DNA from: a virus
Lineage: Duplodnaviria > Heunggongvirae > Uroviricota > Caudoviricetes
Direction: 5' to 3' (one strand)
IMG/VR virus record: IMGVR_UViG_3300022562_000870
Coordinates: 4,184-68,183 of that record
DNA: 64,000 nucleotides
The translations under genes were made by a program, and so were the position numbers. Positions 4,120 through 60,744 of this stretch are shown here, piece by piece (the stretch's first letter is position 1; the number at the start of each line of letters is the position of its first letter). A model generated the notes under the pieces. That model made no database searches. It was not told where the DNA came from and worked only from the letters and a program-made list of their open reading frames with translations.

Positions 4120-4320
4120 TAGTAATGTCCACCGTGCTTTGACGGCAAGTAGGCGAGCAGTTTCTCAAAAGTACCTACGGCGTAGGGAAAATAAATCTGG
4201 CTTTAAAGGGTTGTAGCCCCGTAGTCGAATATACCTGAGCATATGACAATGAGTACAAAGGCCAAGGAAAGTTGTTGTCTGACTGACGAACAGACCATCC
4301 AAATTTATTAAAGGTGAAAA
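4120..4320 (+). ncRNA. candidate structured noncoding region (unassigned)
   Basis: About 200 nt between genes with no ORF and higher GC than the surroundings. Hairpins include GTCTGACTGACGAACAGAC. Not tRNA-like. Confidence 0.2.
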
Positions 4321-7869: not shown

Positions 7870-8781
7870 ATGATAAAAAGATTTAAGGGTTGTTTGCTTG
7901 GATTGGCGGTAGGTGATGCTGTTGGAACGACAGTAGAATTTAAAAATCCAGATTCCTTTTTTCCAGTGGACGACATGACAGGCGGCGGTCCTTTCAAATT
8001 AGAAGCTGGACAGTGGACAGATGATACATCAATGGCGCTCTGTTTAGCTACTAGTTTAATTGAAAACGGATATGATGTAAAAGATCAAATGGACAGATAT
8101 GTTCGTTGGATGGATGAAGGATACATGTCCAGCAATGGAAGATGTTTTGATATTGGGTTCACTACACGCAATGCTTTAAATGATTATAAAGATTCTGGTG
8201 ATCCTTATAGCGGCGATAGTGGTGGATCGTTGAAAGGTAATGGTTCATTGATGCGTTTGGCACCAGTACCAATGTATTACGCAGAAGATACTGTCTTGGC
8301 CATAGAAAAATCTGGTGATAGTTCTAAGACTACACACGGCGATACGACTTGTGTAGATGCTTGCAGATTTTTTGGTGCGTTGATTGTTGGTGCGTTATTT
8401 GGTGTTGATAAAGAACGGCTATTGCGTCCATATGGTTGGATACCAGAACAGTATTGGAAGGATTCTCCTCTACATCCAGAAATAGATGAAGTCGCGGCGG
8501 GGTCTTTTAAAGTTAAAGAACCACCCTTTATTAAAGGTTCTGGATATGTTGTTAGGAGTTTAGAAGCCGCTCTGTGGGCATTCTATCATACAGACAACTT
8601 CAAAGACGCAATCCTTGATGCTGTTAACCTTGGCGATGATGCAGATACTACAGCCGCTATATGTGGTCAAATTGCTGGTGCTTATTATGGCGTTGACGAT
8701 ATACCTGAAGATTGGTTGAATAAATTAACCATGAAAGAAGAAATTGAAGAAATGGCAGTGAAGTTACATGAACACAGATAA
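7870..8781 (+). CDS. ADP-ribosylglycohydrolase family protein (DraG/ARH-like)
   Basis: N-terminal GCLLGLAVGDAVG and C-terminal DDADTTAAICGQIAGAYYG are hallmark ARH motifs. Confidence 0.7.
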   Translation: MIKRFKGCLLGLAVGDAVGTTVEFKNPDSFFPVDDMTGGGPFKLEAGQWTDDTSMALCLATSLIENGYDVKDQMDRYVRWMDEGYMSSNGRCFDIGFTTRNALNDYKDSGDPYSGDSGGSLKGNGSLMRLAPVPMYYAEDTVLAIEKSGDSSKTTHGDTTCVDACRFFGALIVGALFGVDKERLLRPYGWIPEQYWKDSPLHPEIDEVAAGSFKVKEPPFIKGSGYVVRSLEAALWAFYHTDNFKDAILDAVNLGDDADTTAAICGQIAGAYYGVDDIPEDWLNKLTMKEEIEEMAVKLHEHR

Positions 8782-9076
8782 AAAGTTCGGTGGAACTATT
8801 GAAAACTGGACATTAAACAAGCTTACAATTACAAAGGAAAAATTAAAAGAACTTCGTCCAGATATCGTAGTTGATGAAGCTATGATACTATCTGGTTATG
8901 TGGTTGAAGATCCGCTTGGCAGATGGCAACCAGGATTTCATATGCGTTCTTCGATAATAATTGACATTGACCGCGAAAATGGTATAATTGAAACGGAAAA
9001 CACTATATACCATGTGCAAGGTGAAGAAAAGCCCGAAAACGATATGGGTGATTCAATCTTGCGTGTTTTTTACTAG
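8768..9076 (+). CDS. hypothetical protein
   Basis: ORF with no recognised family. Confidence 0.35.
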   Translation: MNTDKKFGGTIENWTLNKLTITKEKLKELRPDIVVDEAMILSGYVVEDPLGRWQPGFHMRSSIIIDIDRENGIIETENTIYHVQGEEKPENDMGDSILRVFY

Positions 9077-9086
9077 GAGAAATACC

Positions 9087-9770
9087 ATGAAAAAGATAGT
9101 TGAAATACGTGCCGCAGAGGGCGGACAGGATAGCAAATTATTTGTCAATGATTTGGCAATCGCATACGAAAAAACCTTTTCTAAACTAGGCTGAAAGTCT
9201 ACACGCTCGTCCGAGCGAGATGGCTTCGTGTCTATTGAAGTCATCGGCAAAAATCTTAACCAATTAAAAAATGAAGCAGGCGGACATCGCATACAACGCG
9301 TTCCACCAACAGAACGTCGTGGTAGGGTGCATACGTCTACTGTAACTGTGGCTATTTTAGATGAAGCATACACAGCCAATTCTAAATATATGCTTCGTGA
9401 AGATCATCATTACTATTTTGAACCTTTTAAATCAACGGGTGCGGGTGGACAGCATAAGAACAAAACCCTTAGTGCTATCAAATGTATCCATATTCCTACT
9501 GGAATTAAGCAGGAAAGGTCAAGTAGGGATCAGCATAAAAACAAACGCGAAGCGCGGATTGCAGTCGATAAAATGCTGGATTCTTTGATAATTGAAGAGC
9601 AAAATGCTAATCAGAACACAGAACGCAGTGATATGGTGGGAAGCGGTATGCGTGGTGATAAAATCAGAACATACCGTTTTCAAGAAGATATCATAATTGA
9701 CCATATTTCTGATAAAAAAGTTAATCTAAAACAAGTATTTAGGGGTAACATGGATGTGTTCTGGAAATAA
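9087..9770 (+). CDS. peptide chain release factor homolog (RF1-type PxT motif, lacks domain 1; PrfH-like) interrupted by an in-frame TGA at 9192-9194
   Basis: - RBS AGGAGA upstream of ATG at 9087.
- IRAAEGGQDSKLFVNDLAIAY matches the start of RF domain 2.
- GGHRIQRVPPTERRGRVHTS carries the PxT motif.
- STGAGGQHKNKTLSAIKCIHIPTGI carries the GGQ motif.
- Both parts are in the same frame, separated only by TGA. Confidence 0.6.
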
Positions 9771-9781
9771 GGTTGACAATA

Positions 9782-9808
9782 ACCTAATAATGGTATAAAC
9801 TTGTGGCT
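9782..9808 (+). promoter_or_regulatory. possible sigma70-like promoter (TTGACA-15-TATAAA)
   Basis: TTGACA at 9782-9787 and TATAAA at 9803-9808. The spacer is short. Confidence 0.3.
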
Positions 9809-11883: not shown

Positions 11884-12276
11884 ATGAATGATACTAAACA
11901 AGTTATAGTTCTTAGAAAAGATTTAAACATGCGCAAAGGTAAAATGGTTGCCCAAGGTGCACATGCTTCTATGAAAGCTATATTTGACCGTGGTAGAATA
12001 CGTAATCCAGACAGCAACGTGTTTGTTGTCGAAATGACGCCCGAAATGAAAGCGTGGATGATGGGAATTTTCACAAAAGTTTGCGTGAGTGTTAACAGCG
12101 AAGAAGAACTTCTAAATATACACAAACAAGCAGAAGATGCCGGATTAATTTGTAGTTTGATACAAGATGCTGGCTTAACGGAATTTGATGGTGTACCAAC
12201 ATATACGGCTGTTGCAGTTGGTCCTGCGAAACGCGAAGATGTAGATAAAATAACTGGACATTTAAAGTTATTATAA
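11884..12276 (+). CDS. peptidyl-tRNA hydrolase, PTH2 family
   Basis: VLRKDLNMRKGKMVAQGAHAS matches the Pth2 signature (VVRxDLxMGKGKxAAQCxHAA). Size about 130 aa. Confidence 0.7.
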   Translation: MNDTKQVIVLRKDLNMRKGKMVAQGAHASMKAIFDRGRIRNPDSNVFVVEMTPEMKAWMMGIFTKVCVSVNSEEELLNIHKQAEDAGLICSLIQDAGLTEFDGVPTYTAVAVGPAKREDVDKITGHLKLL

Positions 12277-14366: not shown

Positions 14367-14439
14367 TGCTTGATAAACTTTGCTGGTGAAGCCTGCTCTC
14401 GTAAAGCAGTGGAAGGCGGTTCGAATCCGCCATCAAGCT
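14367..14439 (+). tRNA. tRNA-Thr (CGU); CCA encoded
   Basis: Acceptor GCTTGAT/ATCAAGC. Anticodon stem CTGCT/AGCAG with loop CTCGTAA. T-arm GGCGG-TTCGAAT-CCGCC. Confidence 0.7.
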
Positions 14440-14530
14440 CCATTCCCCCTTTAACCTAAAAAAATCATTGCAATTATGTTCAAAATGTCGTATCATCTTT
14501 GTGTTAAATTCTTTTTAGAAGGTTACAGAA

Positions 14531-34660: not shown

Positions 34661-35869
34661 ATGAATGAATATCAGCAAAAAATATATGACGATTTAATGC
34701 AACTTGTTGAAAACAATGAAGCATTTTACTACGTTGACCAACACATATTTGATGGTTTATCATCATCTATTGATACAGTATATCGTATTTTCTTATATCG
34801 ATTAGCTTCTTACACAGACTTTCTGAATCCATCGGCGCTGGAATGTCGTGGTATTACTTTTGAAGTAACTGAAGAAGGTAAGAATGCACAACCAATTCGC
34901 TTGGCGGCAATGCCAATGGAAAAGTTTTTCAATTTACATGAAAATCCATTCACTATGGATTTAGATCTTTCCGCTGTTGAAAGTGTAATGTTGAAAGCTG
35001 ATGGTAGTTTAATATCGGCTTTCAAACACAATGGTTATCTACGGCTTAAGACGAAAGGTTCGTTGTGGTCTGACCAAGCAATGGCGGCAATGGGGTGGTT
35101 ACACGATCATGAAAATCAACCACTACTTAATGAAATAACATTATTAGTTAACCATGGCTTTACCGTCAATATGGAATGGTGTGCGCCAGATAATCGTATT
35201 GTTATCAATTACCAAGAACCAAAGTTAGTAATTCTTAATATCCGCAATAATGAAGATGGTAGTTATGTTCGCTATCCTGATCGCGTAGATGAAGGTTTTG
35301 TTGAAATACACAAACATTGGATAGAATTGGAACAACCAAAAGATATCAATGAATTTGTTAAGCAAATACCTTCTATGAAAGATGTGGAAGGTTATGTTGT
35401 ATGCATCAGTTCTGGTCAACCTCATGCCAAAACTCAATTGGCTAACGGTGATTGTTGCATTGGTATCCAGCATGTTAAAATAAAGACTGAATGGTACTTG
35501 ACACAACATCGTGCAAAAGATTCTATCGATAGCCCACGGCGTTTGTTCGAAGCTGTCTTGGAAGAAGCTACTGATGACTTAAAATCTTTATTCCATGATA
35601 ATCCATATGTCTTGAATAAAATCGACGAAATGGAAAAATTCGTTGAAGTACGATACAACCACTTGGTTGATACTGTCGAACGTTTCTATGAACGCAATAA
35701 AGGATTAGAACGCAAAGAATATGCTATTCTTGGACAACAGGAAATGGATCGTATGCAGTTCGGTTTAGCTATGATGAAGTATTTGGATAAGCCTGTTTCT
35801 TACAAAGATGCTATGAAAAAGGCTTGGAAACATTATGGCCTTAAAGATGCAGTAAAGGAAGAAGAATGA
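34661..35869 (+). CDS. RNA ligase, T4 Rnl1-like
   Basis: Nucleotidyltransferase motif I in LKADGSLI (KxDGSL as at T4 Rnl1 K99). Size about 400 aa. Confidence 0.6.
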   Translation: MNEYQQKIYDDLMQLVENNEAFYYVDQHIFDGLSSSIDTVYRIFLYRLASYTDFLNPSALECRGITFEVTEEGKNAQPIRLAAMPMEKFFNLHENPFTMDLDLSAVESVMLKADGSLISAFKHNGYLRLKTKGSLWSDQAMAAMGWLHDHENQPLLNEITLLVNHGFTVNMEWCAPDNRIVINYQEPKLVILNIRNNEDGSYVRYPDRVDEGFVEIHKHWIELEQPKDINEFVKQIPSMKDVEGYVVCISSGQPHAKTQLANGDCCIGIQHVKIKTEWYLTQHRAKDSIDSPRRLFEAVLEEATDDLKSLFHDNPYVLNKIDEMEKFVEVRYNHLVDTVERFYERNKGLERKEYAILGQQEMDRMQFGLAMMKYLDKPVSYKDAMKKAWKHYGLKDAVKEEE

Positions 35870-43685: not shown

Positions 43686-43771
43686 CTGCGTGTAGCCGGG
43701 TAACTTGGTAGCCCCCCTCGCTTGGAACGAGGTGTCGAAAGACCTTGCTGGTTCGAATCCAGTTGCGCAGA
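43686..43771 (+). tRNA. tRNA, atypical type-II-like; anticodon loop CTTGGAA (UGG, Pro?); CCA encoded
   Basis: Acceptor CTGCGTG/TGCGCAG. Anticodon stem CCTCG/CGAGG. Long variable hairpin GTCGAAAGAC. T-arm GCTGG-TTCGAAT-CCAGT. D-arm not resolved. Confidence 0.45.
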
Positions 43772-43787
43772 CCAATATACATTTAAA

Positions 43788-44057: not shown

Positions 44058-44111
44058 CCAAATTTTGTCTGACCTAACACATCGATCACTGTTAGGATTT
44101 ACACAAGTAGT

Positions 44112-44183
44112 AACCATGTGATGTACTTGGAAGCATGGCCCCCTCTAAAGGGGTTTGTATAGGTTCGAATCCTATTGTGGTAA
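44112..44183 (+). tRNA. suppressor-type tRNA with anticodon CUA (reads UAG); no CCA encoded
   Basis: - U8 present.
- D-stem ATGT/GCAT with loop ACTTGGAA.
- Anticodon stem GCCCC/GGGGT with loop CTCTAAA.
- 4-nt variable loop.
- T-arm ATAGG-TTCGAAT-CCTAT.
- Acceptor AACCATG/TGTGGTA with an A1/A72 mismatch. Confidence 0.6.
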
Positions 44184-44246
44184 AAAATGTATTAGTTGGT
44201 ATTCATTCGCGATGAAAAATCCAACCGACAAAATTCAAATTCTATG

Positions 44247-46039: not shown

Positions 46040-46111
46040 GATAAGTTTTGGCAGTGGGGCAGATTGAATATGCGGCTGATTGTCTATCAGCATTAAGAGG
46101 GTTTGATTCCC
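46040..46111 (+). tRNA. tRNA, anticodon loop TTGTCTA (GUC, Asp?); CCA encoded
   Basis: Acceptor GGCAGTG/CACTGTC. Anticodon stem GCTGA/TCAGC. T-arm GAGGG-TTTGATT-CCCTT. D-stem poor. Confidence 0.45.
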
Positions 46112-46119
46112 TTCACTGT

Positions 46120-46187
46120 CGCCAAATATACTATTGTAGTTTAACAAAAATACCTGGAGTAGTCTGGGAGATGTGGGTGAAAATCCT
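46120..46187 (+). tRNA. tRNA-like element with an atypical T-loop (TGAAAAT) and unresolved anticodon; CCA encoded
   Basis: Perfect acceptor ACTATTG/CAATAGT. T-stem GTGGG/CCTGC formed with G-U pairs. Confidence 0.3.
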
Positions 46188-46720: not shown

Positions 46721-46793
46721 GGACTGTGCTCTGGGTTAAGCGGCTGTGGCTCCAAACTACGGCGTCTGCGGGGTTCGATTCCTTGACAGTCTG
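46721..46793 (+). tRNA. tRNA-Trp (CCA); CCA encoded
   Basis: Acceptor GGACTGT/ACAGTCT. Anticodon stem TGTGG/CTACG with loop CTCCAAA. T-arm CGGGG-TTCGATT-CCTTG. Confidence 0.6.
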
Positions 46794-49187
46794 CCAAATT
46801 CATATTATATTATCGAAATGGCTTCTTTAAGATTGCAATCATTTCTAGTACCCACGCTTAAGGTTGGCTTAGGTGGAAATTACTACGTTATTTGTGATGT
46901 AAAAGAACACCTTATCGAAATTTGTAACACAATTAGCAAAAGTGTCAATTCCATTTACTACAATAAAAAATATTGTTGTTGGGTAATTAGGGTAAAAAAC
47001 AAAGCTACCAAGCGAAAATTGTTGACATTAATGCCTATTAATACTACAATGTGTTATGCAAAAGAATAGGCACATAAAAACCATACCAGAAAAATATGGT
47101 ATTTGCGACATTGAATTGGAAGCAACCAAATATTTCAAGGATCATTATAACCGCGATAATTACGATGCCGAAAAAATGTTTGAAGGAATTCCATATATCG
47201 GCTATATGCGCATAGACACAAACGATCCATTGCTTCAACATTGGGGGTATAGTGACGATGATATTATAAATGCAAAAATACTCTCTGTTTCTGAAACGGA
47301 CGTACGTTTTTGTTATTACGATTCACATCATGATCGTCTAGCGTGGGCAACTAAAAAACATGAAAATTTTCATGTAGAAGGAAATGTTTTAAGGAAAGCA
47401 AATGATTAGCAATGACGACATTGATGACCTTCAAGTAAGCTTAGGTTTCTGCTGTTGTGGCAATCCAGAAGATAATTTAAAATATGTTCGCAATGGTTTG
47501 CATCATATCAATGAAATGCACAACATGGATGATGATAAAATGTCTTTTGAAGAATGGACTGAAAAAGGATTAGAAATTTTTGGTAGTAGAAAAGCGGAAT
47601 ATTTTTTTTATTATTGGGCAGACAAGGAAGGGCTGACCGAACATGGTGGTAGTGTGCCGGGATGGTTAGACACAAAAGGCCACGAACTTTTAGAAAATCT
47701 TAATATCATATTAGAGGATAAATGAAATGCCAAAAGGTCGTAAGATAACAAAAGTAGGTAACTACATTAAACGCCAAAACGTACAACGCAAGTTTCGTAT
47801 TGGTACGCGCAAGGCCGGAAAGCCAGCACATGAAATGACAACAGATGATTTGAAGGCCGTACTTGAACGCGAAAGTGATAAACGTTATCACAACAAAGTA
47901 CGTGCTGTTTTAGCATTGCGTGGAGTCGCTGCTTGAATATAGTGAACGTATTGAATAAACTCGCGGATGCACTTAGCGGTTTATCTTTCTATGAAAATAA
48001 CAACACCAGTAGAGGTATTGTGCACGATGAAGTATCTAAAATTTTAGACTTGTGGCTTAATGCTGGTACAATTTATGATTACGCGATAATCTGCGACGAT
48101 AGTAATAATAGTTATTATCTCAGCAATATCAATGTAGATGTTTTACTTAAAACACACATAAATGATGGATTTGTTTATGTGCCTATACGAAAACATTTAA
48201 ACTCGTAATATTACAAGAAACATTAACATGAAACATAGAATAGAAATTTGCAAGAATGGTGAATATAGTAAATTAGCATATATGGCACCAGTAAATGAAG
48301 ATGGTGAAATAGATTCTGGTTACAGAATTGCTGGTCCTAAAGGATGGGGCGGTACATCTACGATTGCAACAATAGACATTAGTGAAGAAAACTTGATAAA
48401 ATATATCAAGGAGTATGCACCAAATGTTCTTAAGGAATTGAGAAGTCGAAAGAAGAAAACAGTATGAGAATTGATATAATAAAAAAGGCCATATACGGAA
48501 TGATCAATGAAAGAATTAATATTACTGCGCTTGAAGAAAAGGATTCTACGGCTGATATTAAACAACAAATAGCAATGCATAGGGATAATTATAATTTCTT
48601 TGAAAAGGCGTTGGCAGAAGAGCTTCAATCAATTTCTGATAGGTTTGACGAACTTGATCATCGTACATCTAAGTTAAGAACATTGCGGTAGGATGGACAG
48701 GTTTCCAAAAGAAGGCGATCCTGTAAGGATTACTATGCAAATTGATAAAGACCTTGAAGCTAATAACGACAAGGTTGGAAAGGTTTTATGGCGTGATGGT
48801 GAATACATCATGGTAGAATTAGACAAAAGTAAAGTTCAAGTCGAATGTTACCTTTGTGAATTAGAGGAAGTATAAAATATGACAACTAAAGTAACAATAG
48901 AAGCTTGTTGTGCTGAAGATGAAGCTGTAAAAATTATAATAGGTGATAAGCTTGTAAGTGATACTTATGTTTTACAAAACGGTGATACTGAAACTTATTA
49001 TATTCATGGTGAAGTATCTTTACTAGTTAAAGAATTTAAAACAGATTAACGACGCGATAACGTATCCACCAGTAGGAGCATAAAGAATATCAAACCGTTC
49101 ATGATAAGGCTGATTCGCGATACTCACAGCTGTAAGTGTAATGTTTTGGGAACCATGTAATTATACTTGCCGTCGTTATTTAAATTA

Positions 49188-53892: not shown

Positions 53893-53972
53893 CGTCGGTG
53901 GTTAATGTAAATCGGTACAGCTACAAGGCTCAAACCCTTGACTTTTGTGGGTTCGAATCCCACCCGGCGTAC
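53893..53972 (+). tRNA. tRNA-Leu (CAA); CCA encoded
   Basis: Paralogous to the 53804 tRNA. Anticodon stem CAAGG/CCTTG with loop CTCAAAC. Confidence 0.6.
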
Positions 53973-54270
53973 CAAATTTAAAGGTGAATTATGTTATTGC
54001 ATTTTGTATTAGATTCTGGTAAAATTGTTACATTGGGTACTTTGTTACCCGTTAGTAAGGATATTTTAAATCTATATGTTAAAAAATATCCGCGACACTG
54101 GATAACAGTATGACAACACCAGAAGAAGTAGATAAGCTACAAGAATTGGCTAAAGAGACTCTTATAGAAATGATTGAAAATAAGAATCATTTTATTACAC
54201 ACGTAAGATACAACTGGCTTGATGGTGATAAAACAAGTGTTACTTTCGAATATATTGATAAGGAATAACT

Positions 54271-59718: not shown

Positions 59719-60744
59719 ATGAACAAGCTATTAACACGTGATGATTTTCGCAATAGCGTCTTTGAACGTGATCGTCACACGTGTGTATTTTGTAAAAACC
59801 CTGCCGTAGATGCGCATCATATTATAGAACGACGCCTGTGGCCTGATGGTGGCTACTATTTAAATAACGGTGCTTCGGTTTGTGAAGAACATCACCTTGC
59901 TTGTGAAATGACAACAATGTCTGTTGAAGAAGTTCGTGAAGCATGTGGCATTGAAAAACCTATTATACCGCCACATTTATATGATGACCAAATTTACGAT
60001 AAATGGGGTAACATAGTATTACCTAATGGACAGCGCCTTAAAGGTGAATTGTTCTTCGATGAAAGTGTTCAAAAGATACTTGAAAAGGGTGGTGTATTAC
60101 CACTATTCACTGGTTACGTAAAATACCCAAGAACATATCACCTTCCTTGGTCACAAGGATTACACGATGATGATCGAATGATGAACAATGTAGATGCCTT
60201 CATTGGGCAGCGCGTAATCGTAACCGAAAAACTTGATGGTGAAAATACTACACTGTATTATGATCATAATCATGCGCGTTCTATCGATAGTGGTGGACAT
60301 GCTAGTCGTGATTGGGTTAAAAATTTCTGGTCACAATTTAATTTTGAAATTCCTGAAGATTGGCGCGTATGTGGTGAAAATATGTATGCGGAACATTCTA
60401 TACCTTATAACGACCTAAAATCTTATTTTTATGGATTCTCCATATGGAATGAAAAGAACATATGTTTATCGTGGGATGAAACCTTAGAATGGTTTAGGTT
60501 ATTACATCCTAAATTAGTCCATGTTCCAGTTTTATACGATGGTATATTCGATAAAAAGGTTATCGTTGACTTATGGAATGATTCGATGTATGATACTTGT
60601 GAAGGGTACGTTATGCGCGTAGCTGATTCTTTTTCTATGAATGAATTTAGGTTCAAAGTGGGAAAGTTTGTTCGCAAAGACCATATCAGAACTACACCGC
60701 ATTGGATGCACGGCAAACCCATAACAGTTAATAAATTGAAATAA
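59719..60744 (+). CDS. HNH nuclease domain fused to an ATP-dependent RNA/DNA ligase-like nucleotidyltransferase
   Basis: - N-terminus: HTCVFCKNPAVDAHHIIERR...CEEHH (HNH).
- C-terminus: motif I VIVTEKLDGEN (KxDGxN), motif IV EGYVMRV, motif V FKVGKFVRK. Confidence 0.55.
   Translation: MNKLLTRDDFRNSVFERDRHTCVFCKNPAVDAHHIIERRLWPDGGYYLNNGASVCEEHHLACEMTTMSVEEVREACGIEKPIIPPHLYDDQIYDKWGNIVLPNGQRLKGELFFDESVQKILEKGGVLPLFTGYVKYPRTYHLPWSQGLHDDDRMMNNVDAFIGQRVIVTEKLDGENTTLYYDHNHARSIDSGGHASRDWVKNFWSQFNFEIPEDWRVCGENMYAEHSIPYNDLKSYFYGFSIWNEKNICLSWDETLEWFRLLHPKLVHVPVLYDGIFDKKVIVDLWNDSMYDTCEGYVMRVADSFSMNEFRFKVGKFVRKDHIRTTPHWMHGKPITVNKLK

Follow-up and report, generated by a model that had tools for sequence, protein, structure and literature searches.

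A conserved in-frame UGA codon suggests programmed read-through in phage genes for a release factor 1 derivative without domain 1

RESULTS

An RF1-like phage gene is interrupted by one in-frame TGA codon

The window analyzed here is a 64,000-nucleotide stretch (positions 4,184 to 68,183) of the IMG/VR virus record IMGVR_UViG_3300022562_000870, assigned to the Caudoviricetes. It contains, at positions 9087-9770 of the plus strand, a gene related to that of bacterial peptide chain release factor 1 (RF1), in which a TGA codon interrupts a reading frame that is otherwise open from ATG to TAA over 227 codons. Both ends of this single frame were found as the initial annotation had described them, with a Shine-Dalgarno sequence, AGGAG (9075..9079, plus strand), 7 nt before the ATG at 9087 and a terminal TAA stop at 9768..9770. 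The sole break is the TGA at codon 36 (9192..9194), where the window reads GGC TGA AAG and stays in frame 0; the CUU-stop-C heptamer with +1 continuation known from prfB is not the arrangement of this gene. No frame remains open upstream of ATG 9087, the preceding gene having its end at 9076. Codons 1-35 (9087..9191) encode the segment E11-G12-G13-x-D15, the counterpart of the tip of RF1 helix α-5, and codons 37-227 (9195..9767) encode what remains of domain 2/4, then domain 3 including the GGQ motif, and the C-terminal part. The tripeptide PPT (the PxT "anticodon" motif of RF1) is encoded at 9303..9311 within HRIQRVPPTERRGRVHTS, and the GGQ catalytic motif, as read from the sequence, at 9444..9452 (residues 120-122).

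Profile comparisons placed the conceptual product with RF1. The Pfam families PCRF (residues 4-88, equivalent to profile positions 103-194 of 194; 74.8 bits) and RF-1 (residues 111-206; 68 bits) were both matched above their cut-offs. The NCBIfam RF1 model was matched over positions 107-333 of 347 with 187.5 bits, versus an equivalog cut-off of 400, and this was the best of the three release factor models compared (RF2, 102 bits; PrfH, 59.7 bits). A second comparison, against PDB sequences, yielded 200 bits for RF1, 122 for RF2, and 55 for PrfH. Since the RF1 match starts at position 107 and the upstream frames are closed, domain 1, the part of cellular RF1 that contacts the ribosomal stalk and RF3, is absent, and the four-domain RF1 architecture is not present in the window product. 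The proposed composition of domains 2-4 with PxT and GGQ motifs was thus borne out by the Pfam and NCBIfam matches. The proposed likeness to PrfH, in contrast, held for the missing domain 1 and for nothing else: the PrfH model TIGR03072 covered residues 105-198 only, which is the GGQ domain, with its 59.7 bits falling short of a cut-off of 166.65. By these profile matches, the window protein is an RF1 derivative with domains 2-4, and PrfH identity is excluded.

The decoding elements typical of RF1, Q-R-V-P-P-T and H-T-S, are kept in HRIQRVPPTERRGRVHTS. In the family alignment (A1), P73, P74, and T75, G120, G121, and Q122, and the EGGxD segment (E11-G12-G13-x-D15) are invariant; cellular RF1s with the QRVPPTE pattern also exist among GTDB genomes. 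The fold was judged from an AlphaFold2 model of a 77% identical homolog, not of the window sequence itself. This model had a predicted local distance difference test score of 89.8 and superimposed on ribosome-bound RF1 with template modeling scores of 0.85-0.90 and a root mean square deviation of ∼2.6 Å, so that the predicted fold corresponds to a complete RF1 domain 2/3/4 module. From the retained residues and the model, UAA and UAG, but not UGA, are predicted to be the stops recognized by the product, consistent with the earlier suggestion that it would not terminate its own read-through.

The TGA codon occupies a conserved Trp position and is kept in divergent homologs

In HMMER alignments, the TGA codon coincided with the Trp of Escherichia coli RF1 (…AEARRW…; PDB 5o2r/6orl), as had been proposed from an ungapped comparison, and also with the Trp of Thermotoga maritima RF1 (RKGW). 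The interruption therefore does not lie off a conserved aromatic position.

To learn whether related phages have the same stop, DNA loci were collected from IMG/VR (best 80 of 412 confirmed relatives), metagenomes (best 80 of 591), and GTDB genomes. In the first set of IMG/VR loci, TGA was present at codon 36 in all 68. When distinct complete genes were tallied, 123 of 147 had TGA at codon 36, 13 had TGA at one or two other positions between codons 38 and 53 (two of them also with TAG), 4 required a +1 frameshift, and 7 were uninterrupted; internal stops in these genes amounted to 141 TGA, 2 TAG, and no TAA. The homologs thus do not have a sense codon at this site as a rule. Pairwise identities among the 123 codon-36 TGA genes were 36-100% (median, 57%), and by nearest-neighbor analysis these genes were as far apart from one another as from E. 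coli RF1. Among the closest relatives, the proportion of synonymous differences (pS) was 0.5-0.9 (about 0.65), i.e., synonymous sites were saturated, and the proportion of nonsynonymous differences (pN) was ∼0.13 in codons 1-35 and ∼0.15 in codons 37-90, with values near 0.1-0.2 in both parts. For the N-terminal 35 codons, the ratio of nonsynonymous to synonymous rates (dN/dS) had a median of 0.20 over 547 pairs. Both halves of the gene are hence under purifying selection, though synonymous sites are saturated, and the part downstream of the TGA was free of further stops and frameshifts. A stop kept in divergent homologs and followed by same-frame coding selection is the pattern by which programmed read-through is recognized.

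These comparisons also bear on the pseudogene that the initial annotation had raised as an alternative, with TGG changed to TGA in a decaying gene, and on errors of sequencing or assembly. A single G-to-A change would suffice, and it is by premature stops that pseudogenes are usually recognized. However, the TGA recurs in 123 distinct genes from independent samples with saturated synonymous sites, the catalytic and decoding motifs are invariant, additional stops and frameshifts are lacking, and the internal stop is never TAA and only twice TAG. A single-contaminant origin of the relatives is excluded by their identity range of 36-82%. With 123 of 147 genes carrying the TGA and selection acting on both halves, the comparative data exclude decay, and we regard an error or pseudogene as having practically no probability.

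Database entries obscure the interruption. The protein search returned thousands of relatives, the closest being either proteins of ∼227 residues with Trp36 or fragments of 137-187 residues. The W of the full-length entries was considered as a sign of relatives with TGG and was ruled out as such, as the DNA has TGA: in P0002-P0009 and the database proteins of 222-232 amino acids, the "Trp" is a TGA translated under genetic code 4 by gene callers working on short contigs. Public protein sets accordingly hold the family as code-4 "full-length" proteins (including P0004/L163 and P0097/L165) or as N-terminally truncated fragments of 137-187 amino acids, the latter being arbitrary internal starts called after the TGA. 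In PHROGs, the family is entry phrog_19918, "unknown function." GTDB best matches dropped quickly to ordinary full-length cellular RF1 at ∼40% identity, from which it follows that the domain-1-less form is essentially viral. A megablast search of INPHARED with the region gave no match, and cultured phages had no close homolog (best tblastn identity, <40%).

Gene calls of this kind would be expected if function were split, with codons 1-35 serving as a leader or as a peptide in its own right and the functional protein arising from an internal start or by reinitiation, for instance, at GTG 9228, which opens an ORF (open reading frame) of 180 codons. Yet the called starts vary in codon (M, L, V) and in product length (187, 185, 180, 176, 156, 148, 142, 140, 138, and 137 amino acids), and none is conserved. 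Moreover, codons 1-35 are themselves under the strong purifying selection described above and hold the invariant EGGxD together with a helix of RF1 domain 2, in-frame conservation extends through codons 37-47, which separate the TGA from GTG 9228, and sister lineages join the two parts by a +1 frameshift. We therefore consider split function very improbable.

The internal TGA has a context unlike that of terminal TGAs

The stop itself was the most strongly conserved feature of its surroundings. In 118 unique 108-nt segments, each base of the TGA at codon 36 carried 2.0 bits of information, compared with 0.05-0.6 bits at neighboring third codon positions. The preceding codon was always GGN, and the overall context was GGN-UGA-A. 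Among 68 genes, the base following the internal TGA (+4) was A 55 times (81%), C 6 times, and G 7 times but never T, whereas after 411 terminal TGAs of the same loci, A made up 28% and T 29%. The internal TGA context is therefore unlike that of real terminators, with +4 T in 0/68 genes versus 29%. In bacteria, +4 U reportedly lowers read-through, strengthening termination (PMC5289835).

RNAalifold detected no conserved RNA structure after the TGA in the 118 sequences. The fold of the window around the TGA had a z score of -1.15, neither a read-through-stimulating structure nor a selenocysteine insertion sequence (SECIS) was found there, and an Rfam search of the TGA region gave no match. These results concern a further explanation, namely, that the UGA encodes selenocysteine, for which UGA is the codon and to which in-frame UGAs in bacteria often belong. 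Besides the missing downstream hairpin and Rfam match, the homologous residue is Trp and not Cys, and no tRNA-Sec was among the tRNAs found in the window and flanks, which makes selenocysteine exceedingly unlikely.

TGA is otherwise a normal stop, and a near-cognate tRNA-Trp is the favored decoder

All genes of the window lie on the plus strand, with ORFs covering 86% of it. TGA ends 32 of the 115 plus-strand ORFs, with overlaps of the ATGA type, and after terminal TGAs in the window, the frames close within a median of 10 codons (9-10 over the window and flanks). The genetic code was tested by the distance over which frames stay open beyond a terminal stop; a comparison of coding densities among codes 11, 4, and 15 gave no information, since ORFs lengthen whenever any stop is removed. 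The description of TGA as a normal stop elsewhere in the window was thereby upheld, and neither the window nor the flanks of any locus nor LR745206 showed TGA recoding. Other candidates for TGA-split genes in the window turned out to be adjacent genes in a shared frame.

As decoders of the internal UGA, the initial annotation had offered a UGA-reading tRNA or a near-cognate tRNA-Trp. ARAGORN and Rfam found no tRNA with a UCA anticodon in the 64-kb window, and none of 922 tRNAs in 1.13 Mb of flanks around 82 homologs had this anticodon. The complete LR745206 genome (634,780 bp), whose release factor copy has two in-frame TGAs, encodes 59 tRNAs, including one tRNA-Trp(CCA), and no suppressor tRNA was found among the 59. 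Because the UCA anticodon occurs in none of the 922 neighboring and 59 LR745206 tRNAs, the near-cognate tRNA-Trp is the favored decoder and a dedicated UGA-reading tRNA is unlikely. Genes for tRNA-Trp(CCA) were frequent near the homologs, and 20 of 24 had a U11-A24 pair, to which the Hirsh suppressor mutation gives rise. This pair is common in bacterial tRNA-Trp, and we did not accept it as evidence of Hirsh-like suppression; it is a weak hint only.

If the TGA were decoded by a phage tRNA dedicated to suppression (anticodon UCA), or after a late switch to a TGA=Trp code, the RF1-like gene would belong to a "code-change module" of the type proposed for the TGA-recoded Jade phages. The precedent is the report by Borges et al. 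of RF1, TrpRS, and a TGA-suppressor tRNA beside TGA-recoded lysis genes, and of suppressor tRNAs often missed by detection tools. Unusual tRNAs are also present in the window, one of them (44111-44184) having a CUA anticodon, and the window shows no more than 64 kb of the genome. Against this stand the tRNA counts given above, the normal ending of ORFs by TGA in the window, across 1.13 Mb of flanking DNA, and throughout LR745206, where TGA is a strict stop, with no TGA continuation at any locus, and the fact that the Jade-phage module is itself in the standard code (Borges et al.). A suppressor tRNA or code switch therefore appears unlikely to us, though less remote than split function.

Several tRNA calls in the window deserve mention in their own right. 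The CUA-anticodon tRNA, of the amber suppressor type, was called by both ARAGORN and Rfam (45.9 bits) in a genome that also has the RF1 homolog predicted to read UAG; similar CUA tRNAs occurred in L006, L021 (together with a UUA tRNA), and L035. A tRNA at 46050-46121 was found by Rfam only and missed by ARAGORN; its anticodon, GUC, rules it out as a suppressor. Three ARAGORN tRNAs (14368-14442, 43686-43774, and 53895-53974) scored below the Rfam gathering score.

Some relatives have other gates or none

A prfB-like +1 cassette was present in five loci (four within the 147) where others have the stop. It reads CTT TAG C in L017 (∼470-480), L241, and L246, at codons 33, 37, and 53, and CTT TGA C in L086 and LR745208 (L254, LR745208.1, a complete huge-phage genome); upstream of the L241 cassette, the sequence is AAGAGGGGA. 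A +1 slip restores the RF1-like ORF in all five, and four genes joined explicitly encode 223-232 residues. By nearest-neighbor analysis, the frameshift genes nest among different read-through types, and the gates thus arose or interconverted repeatedly.

Trp36 is lost in a divergent clade (clade B), which includes the huge phages LR745206, LR756504, and LR756502. Its members (L167/L255-L267 [LR745206.1], L168 [LR756504.1], L170 [LR756502.1], L084, L085, L224-L226, and L239) have Phe or Leu at position 36 and a TGA a few codons downstream, with one or two in-frame TGAs at codons 38-53 and, in L224 and L226, a TGA plus a TAG. The seven ungated homologs were L252, L169, L227, L238, L243, L249, and L250. 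In L252 (P0022; JGI 3300072488 Ga0634389_00009, 181 kb), the protein is 55% identical to that of the window and has Ala at position 36; the gene lies outside a tRNA island and adjoins NlpC/P60 and holin-like genes.

Two contigs carried two paralogs each, all with the codon-36 TGA (L193, 940-1614 and 2911-3588; L244, 2476-2859 and 3001-3699). The L244 paralogs differ in the tripeptide, PKT and PPN. In LR745208 (L254), the decoding loop is shortened (QRTSNGRIHSS) and without PxT, and L086 and L233 have PPN for PPT. As judged from their sequences, copies with a variant decoding loop may have altered or lost codon specificity.

Expression signals and genomic setting

Upstream of the window gene, a σ70 consensus promoter was found on the plus strand at 8961..8988 (TTGACA, 16-nt spacer, TG, TATAAT; 12/12 matches). 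This pattern match has an extended -10 TG and lies within the 3' end of the DUF6957 gene, ∼98 nt before the RF1-like start codon. Given this promoter and the good Shine-Dalgarno sequence, the TGA is likely the limiting step of expression. The strong upstream promoter was limited to this window and L184 and is no family feature; a Shine-Dalgarno-like motif preceded the start in 99 of 114 homologs, and 62 of 68 homologs had TAA as the terminal stop. A second promoter-like site (TTGACA, 17-nt spacer, TAAACT; 10/12 matches, likewise a pattern match only) directly follows the gene on the plus strand at 9773..9801 and suggests that the RF1-like gene could be its own transcription unit.

Adjoining genes encode DUF6957, two small ORFs, a cupin, and KdsA. 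Wider neighbors include an R2K ATP-grasp protein, an ADP-ribosylglycohydrolase (7870-8781), the archaeo-eukaryotic-type peptidyl-tRNA hydrolase PTH2 (11884-12276), a T4-type RNA ligase 1 (34661-35869), a second RNA ligase (59719-60744), and tRNAs called by both methods. An adjacent RtcB was not found; the RNA ligases are of other families and lie 25-50 kb away. In general, the RF1-like gene was situated in tRNA islands (the 922 tRNAs in 1.13 Mb of flanks), and a search for a recurrent operon partner yielded, besides tRNAs, only PTH2 (10 other loci). The neighborhood looks like a translation-maintenance island, and PTH2, the RNA ligases, and the ADP-ribosylglycohydrolase plausibly form a counterdefense and translation-repair module. 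The T4-type RNA ligase 1 (Rnl1) was 40-43% identical to those of jumbo myophages with genomes of 320-360 kb, of which the phage is a distant relative.

DISCUSSION

The conservation of the TGA, the selection on both sides of it, and its position at the RF1 Trp support the original proposal that programmed UGA read-through gates a phage release factor-like protein. In our judgment, the UGA is probably read as Trp by a near-cognate tRNA-Trp, in competition with host RF2, and this gates the production of a domain-1-less RF1. What we infer here comprises the occurrence of read-through, the insertion of Trp, the tuning by RF2, and the role of the product. RF2 is the only factor that reads UGA. The gene would be transcribed, in this phage from the upstream consensus σ70 promoter, and ribosomes initiating at the good Shine-Dalgarno sequence and ATG would reach GGC-UGA-A at codon 36. 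There, host RF2 would usually terminate translation and release a 35-residue peptide, whereas a minority of ribosomes would accept near-cognate Trp-tRNA(CCA), which would restore the ancestral RF1 Trp and yield the 227-residue factor. Output would be low, set by the competition of RF2 with tRNA-Trp, and would rise with inefficient UGA termination or abundant tRNA-Trp. The product would act as a UAA/UAG-specific terminator without the stalk- and RF3-contacting domain and would belong to the translation-maintenance island of tRNAs, PTH2, and RNA ligases.

Several points weigh against this reading. The case for read-through has been built by reasoning from sequence. It places an RF1-type factor behind the RF2-specific codon UGA. 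As the 80 best loci were taken from each collection, the homolog sample is biased toward sequences related to the window protein, and the tRNA scan of the window phage covered 64 kb of a genome of probably ∼350 kb, so that a suppressor tRNA may be encoded elsewhere in it. The only tRNA-Trp call in the window (ARAGORN, 46721-46796) has an aberrant D-arm and is unsupported by Rfam, which would leave as decoder either the tRNA-Trp of the host or a tRNA from a part of the phage genome beyond the window. In the clade B genes with two TGAs, simple near-cognate read-through would give a very low yield. The two-TGA genes hint at an extra factor, e.g., inhibition of RF2 or an unusually leaky host, and read-through in infected cells may be higher. 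Finally, a gate is not obligatory, since seven homologs are ungated, with P0022 having Ala at the site.

A wider view of the family is possible and is offered here more tentatively. Nearly all members of the domain-1-less phage RF1 family would lie behind recoding gates that read the termination state of the host. Most would have an RF2-sensed UGA-to-Trp gate that cross-couples the two branches of termination, and others would independently have acquired a CUU-UAG-C +1 cassette, the first RF1-cognate counterpart of autoregulation in prfB. An RF3-independent terminator might then be made only when host termination falters or tRNA-Trp is in excess.

If true, these gates would be a widespread natural phage example of both recoding devices acting on an RF1-type factor, in parallel to giant eukaryotic viruses, and would open to experiment the ways in which large phages monitor or remodel termination in the host. 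Synthetic biology would also gain small natural cassettes for UGA read-through and UAG frameshifting. A systematic annotation error would be exposed as well, the family being stored as fragments or code-4 "full-length" proteins. Release factors are among the translation genes of huge phages (PMC7162821); a UGA interruption of phage release factor genes was not mentioned in the reviews and surveys of release factors, recoding, and huge and jumbo phages that were searched, subscription literature being outside this search.

Among known systems, prfB, the RF2 gene with its CUU UGA C +1 frameshift, is the classic of translational control by recoding-gated release factor genes, and an RF1-type gate would extend it. 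In both cases, a release factor gene is stopped early (codon 26 in prfB, codon 36 in the phage gene), the interrupting stop is read by one of the two release factors, and full-length synthesis depends on its reading; the actual heptamer, moreover, occurs in the five relatives of the window gene described above. Unlike in prfB, however, the window ORF goes on in the same frame, which means read-through instead of frameshifting, and an RF1-type factor stands behind the RF2-specific UGA, so that feedback would be cross-regulation and not autoregulation. A UAG cassette in an RF1-type gene would be the RF1 analogue of prfB autoregulation. A 2016 review of recoding describes an early in-frame stop with same-frame continuation as unknown for RF2 and RF1 genes (PMC5009743), and in a 2025 survey of >12,000 bacterial genomes, programmed frameshifting was absent from prfA and TAG from the prfB motif (8,164 genomes) (PMC12421855).

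PrfH, thought to act in conflict-related ribosome rescue (PMC6514570), resembles the phage protein as a release factor homolog without the N-terminal domain 1, and RNA ligases, PTH2, and tRNAs are encoded in the same island as the window gene. This gene differs from PrfH in its retained RF1 decoding elements, the lack of an adjacent RtcB, and the restriction of the PrfH model match to the GGQ domain. The RF1 and RF2 genes in the code-change modules of recoded phages are likewise phage class I release factors near tRNAs (Borges et al.). Those genes were reported as uninterrupted and in the standard code, in phages with recoded late genes; in the phages studied here, in contrast, TGA is not recoded elsewhere and the release factor gene itself carries the stop.

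The leaky UGA of the phage Qβ A1 gene is read as Trp by normal tRNA-Trp (PMC6526423), and by analogy the RF1-like gene would be a phage gene whose UGA is occasionally read as Trp to give a minor full-length product. In Qβ, the short product is the major functional protein, to which read-through adds a C-terminal extension, whereas translation of the phage release factor gene up to the UGA yields a fragment of 35 residues, which leaves the read-through product as the only one that can function. A close parallel is found in the class I release factor of Mimivirus and Megavirus (R726/mg280), whose gene has a strictly conserved in-frame UGA, for which decoding as Trp by a tRNA-Trp bearing a Hirsh-like D-arm was proposed, and a separate UAG/UAA frameshift (PMC3521657). 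Here, too, a virus-encoded termination factor gene needs recoding, and the same two devices occur in the phage family. The giant-virus factor, however, is an eRF1/aRF1 homolog acting in a eukaryotic host, whereas that of the phages is a bacterial RF1 derivative without domain 1. The phage devices are single and distributed over different lineages, not together in one gene, and the phage UGA, in a further difference, replaces a conserved Trp codon.

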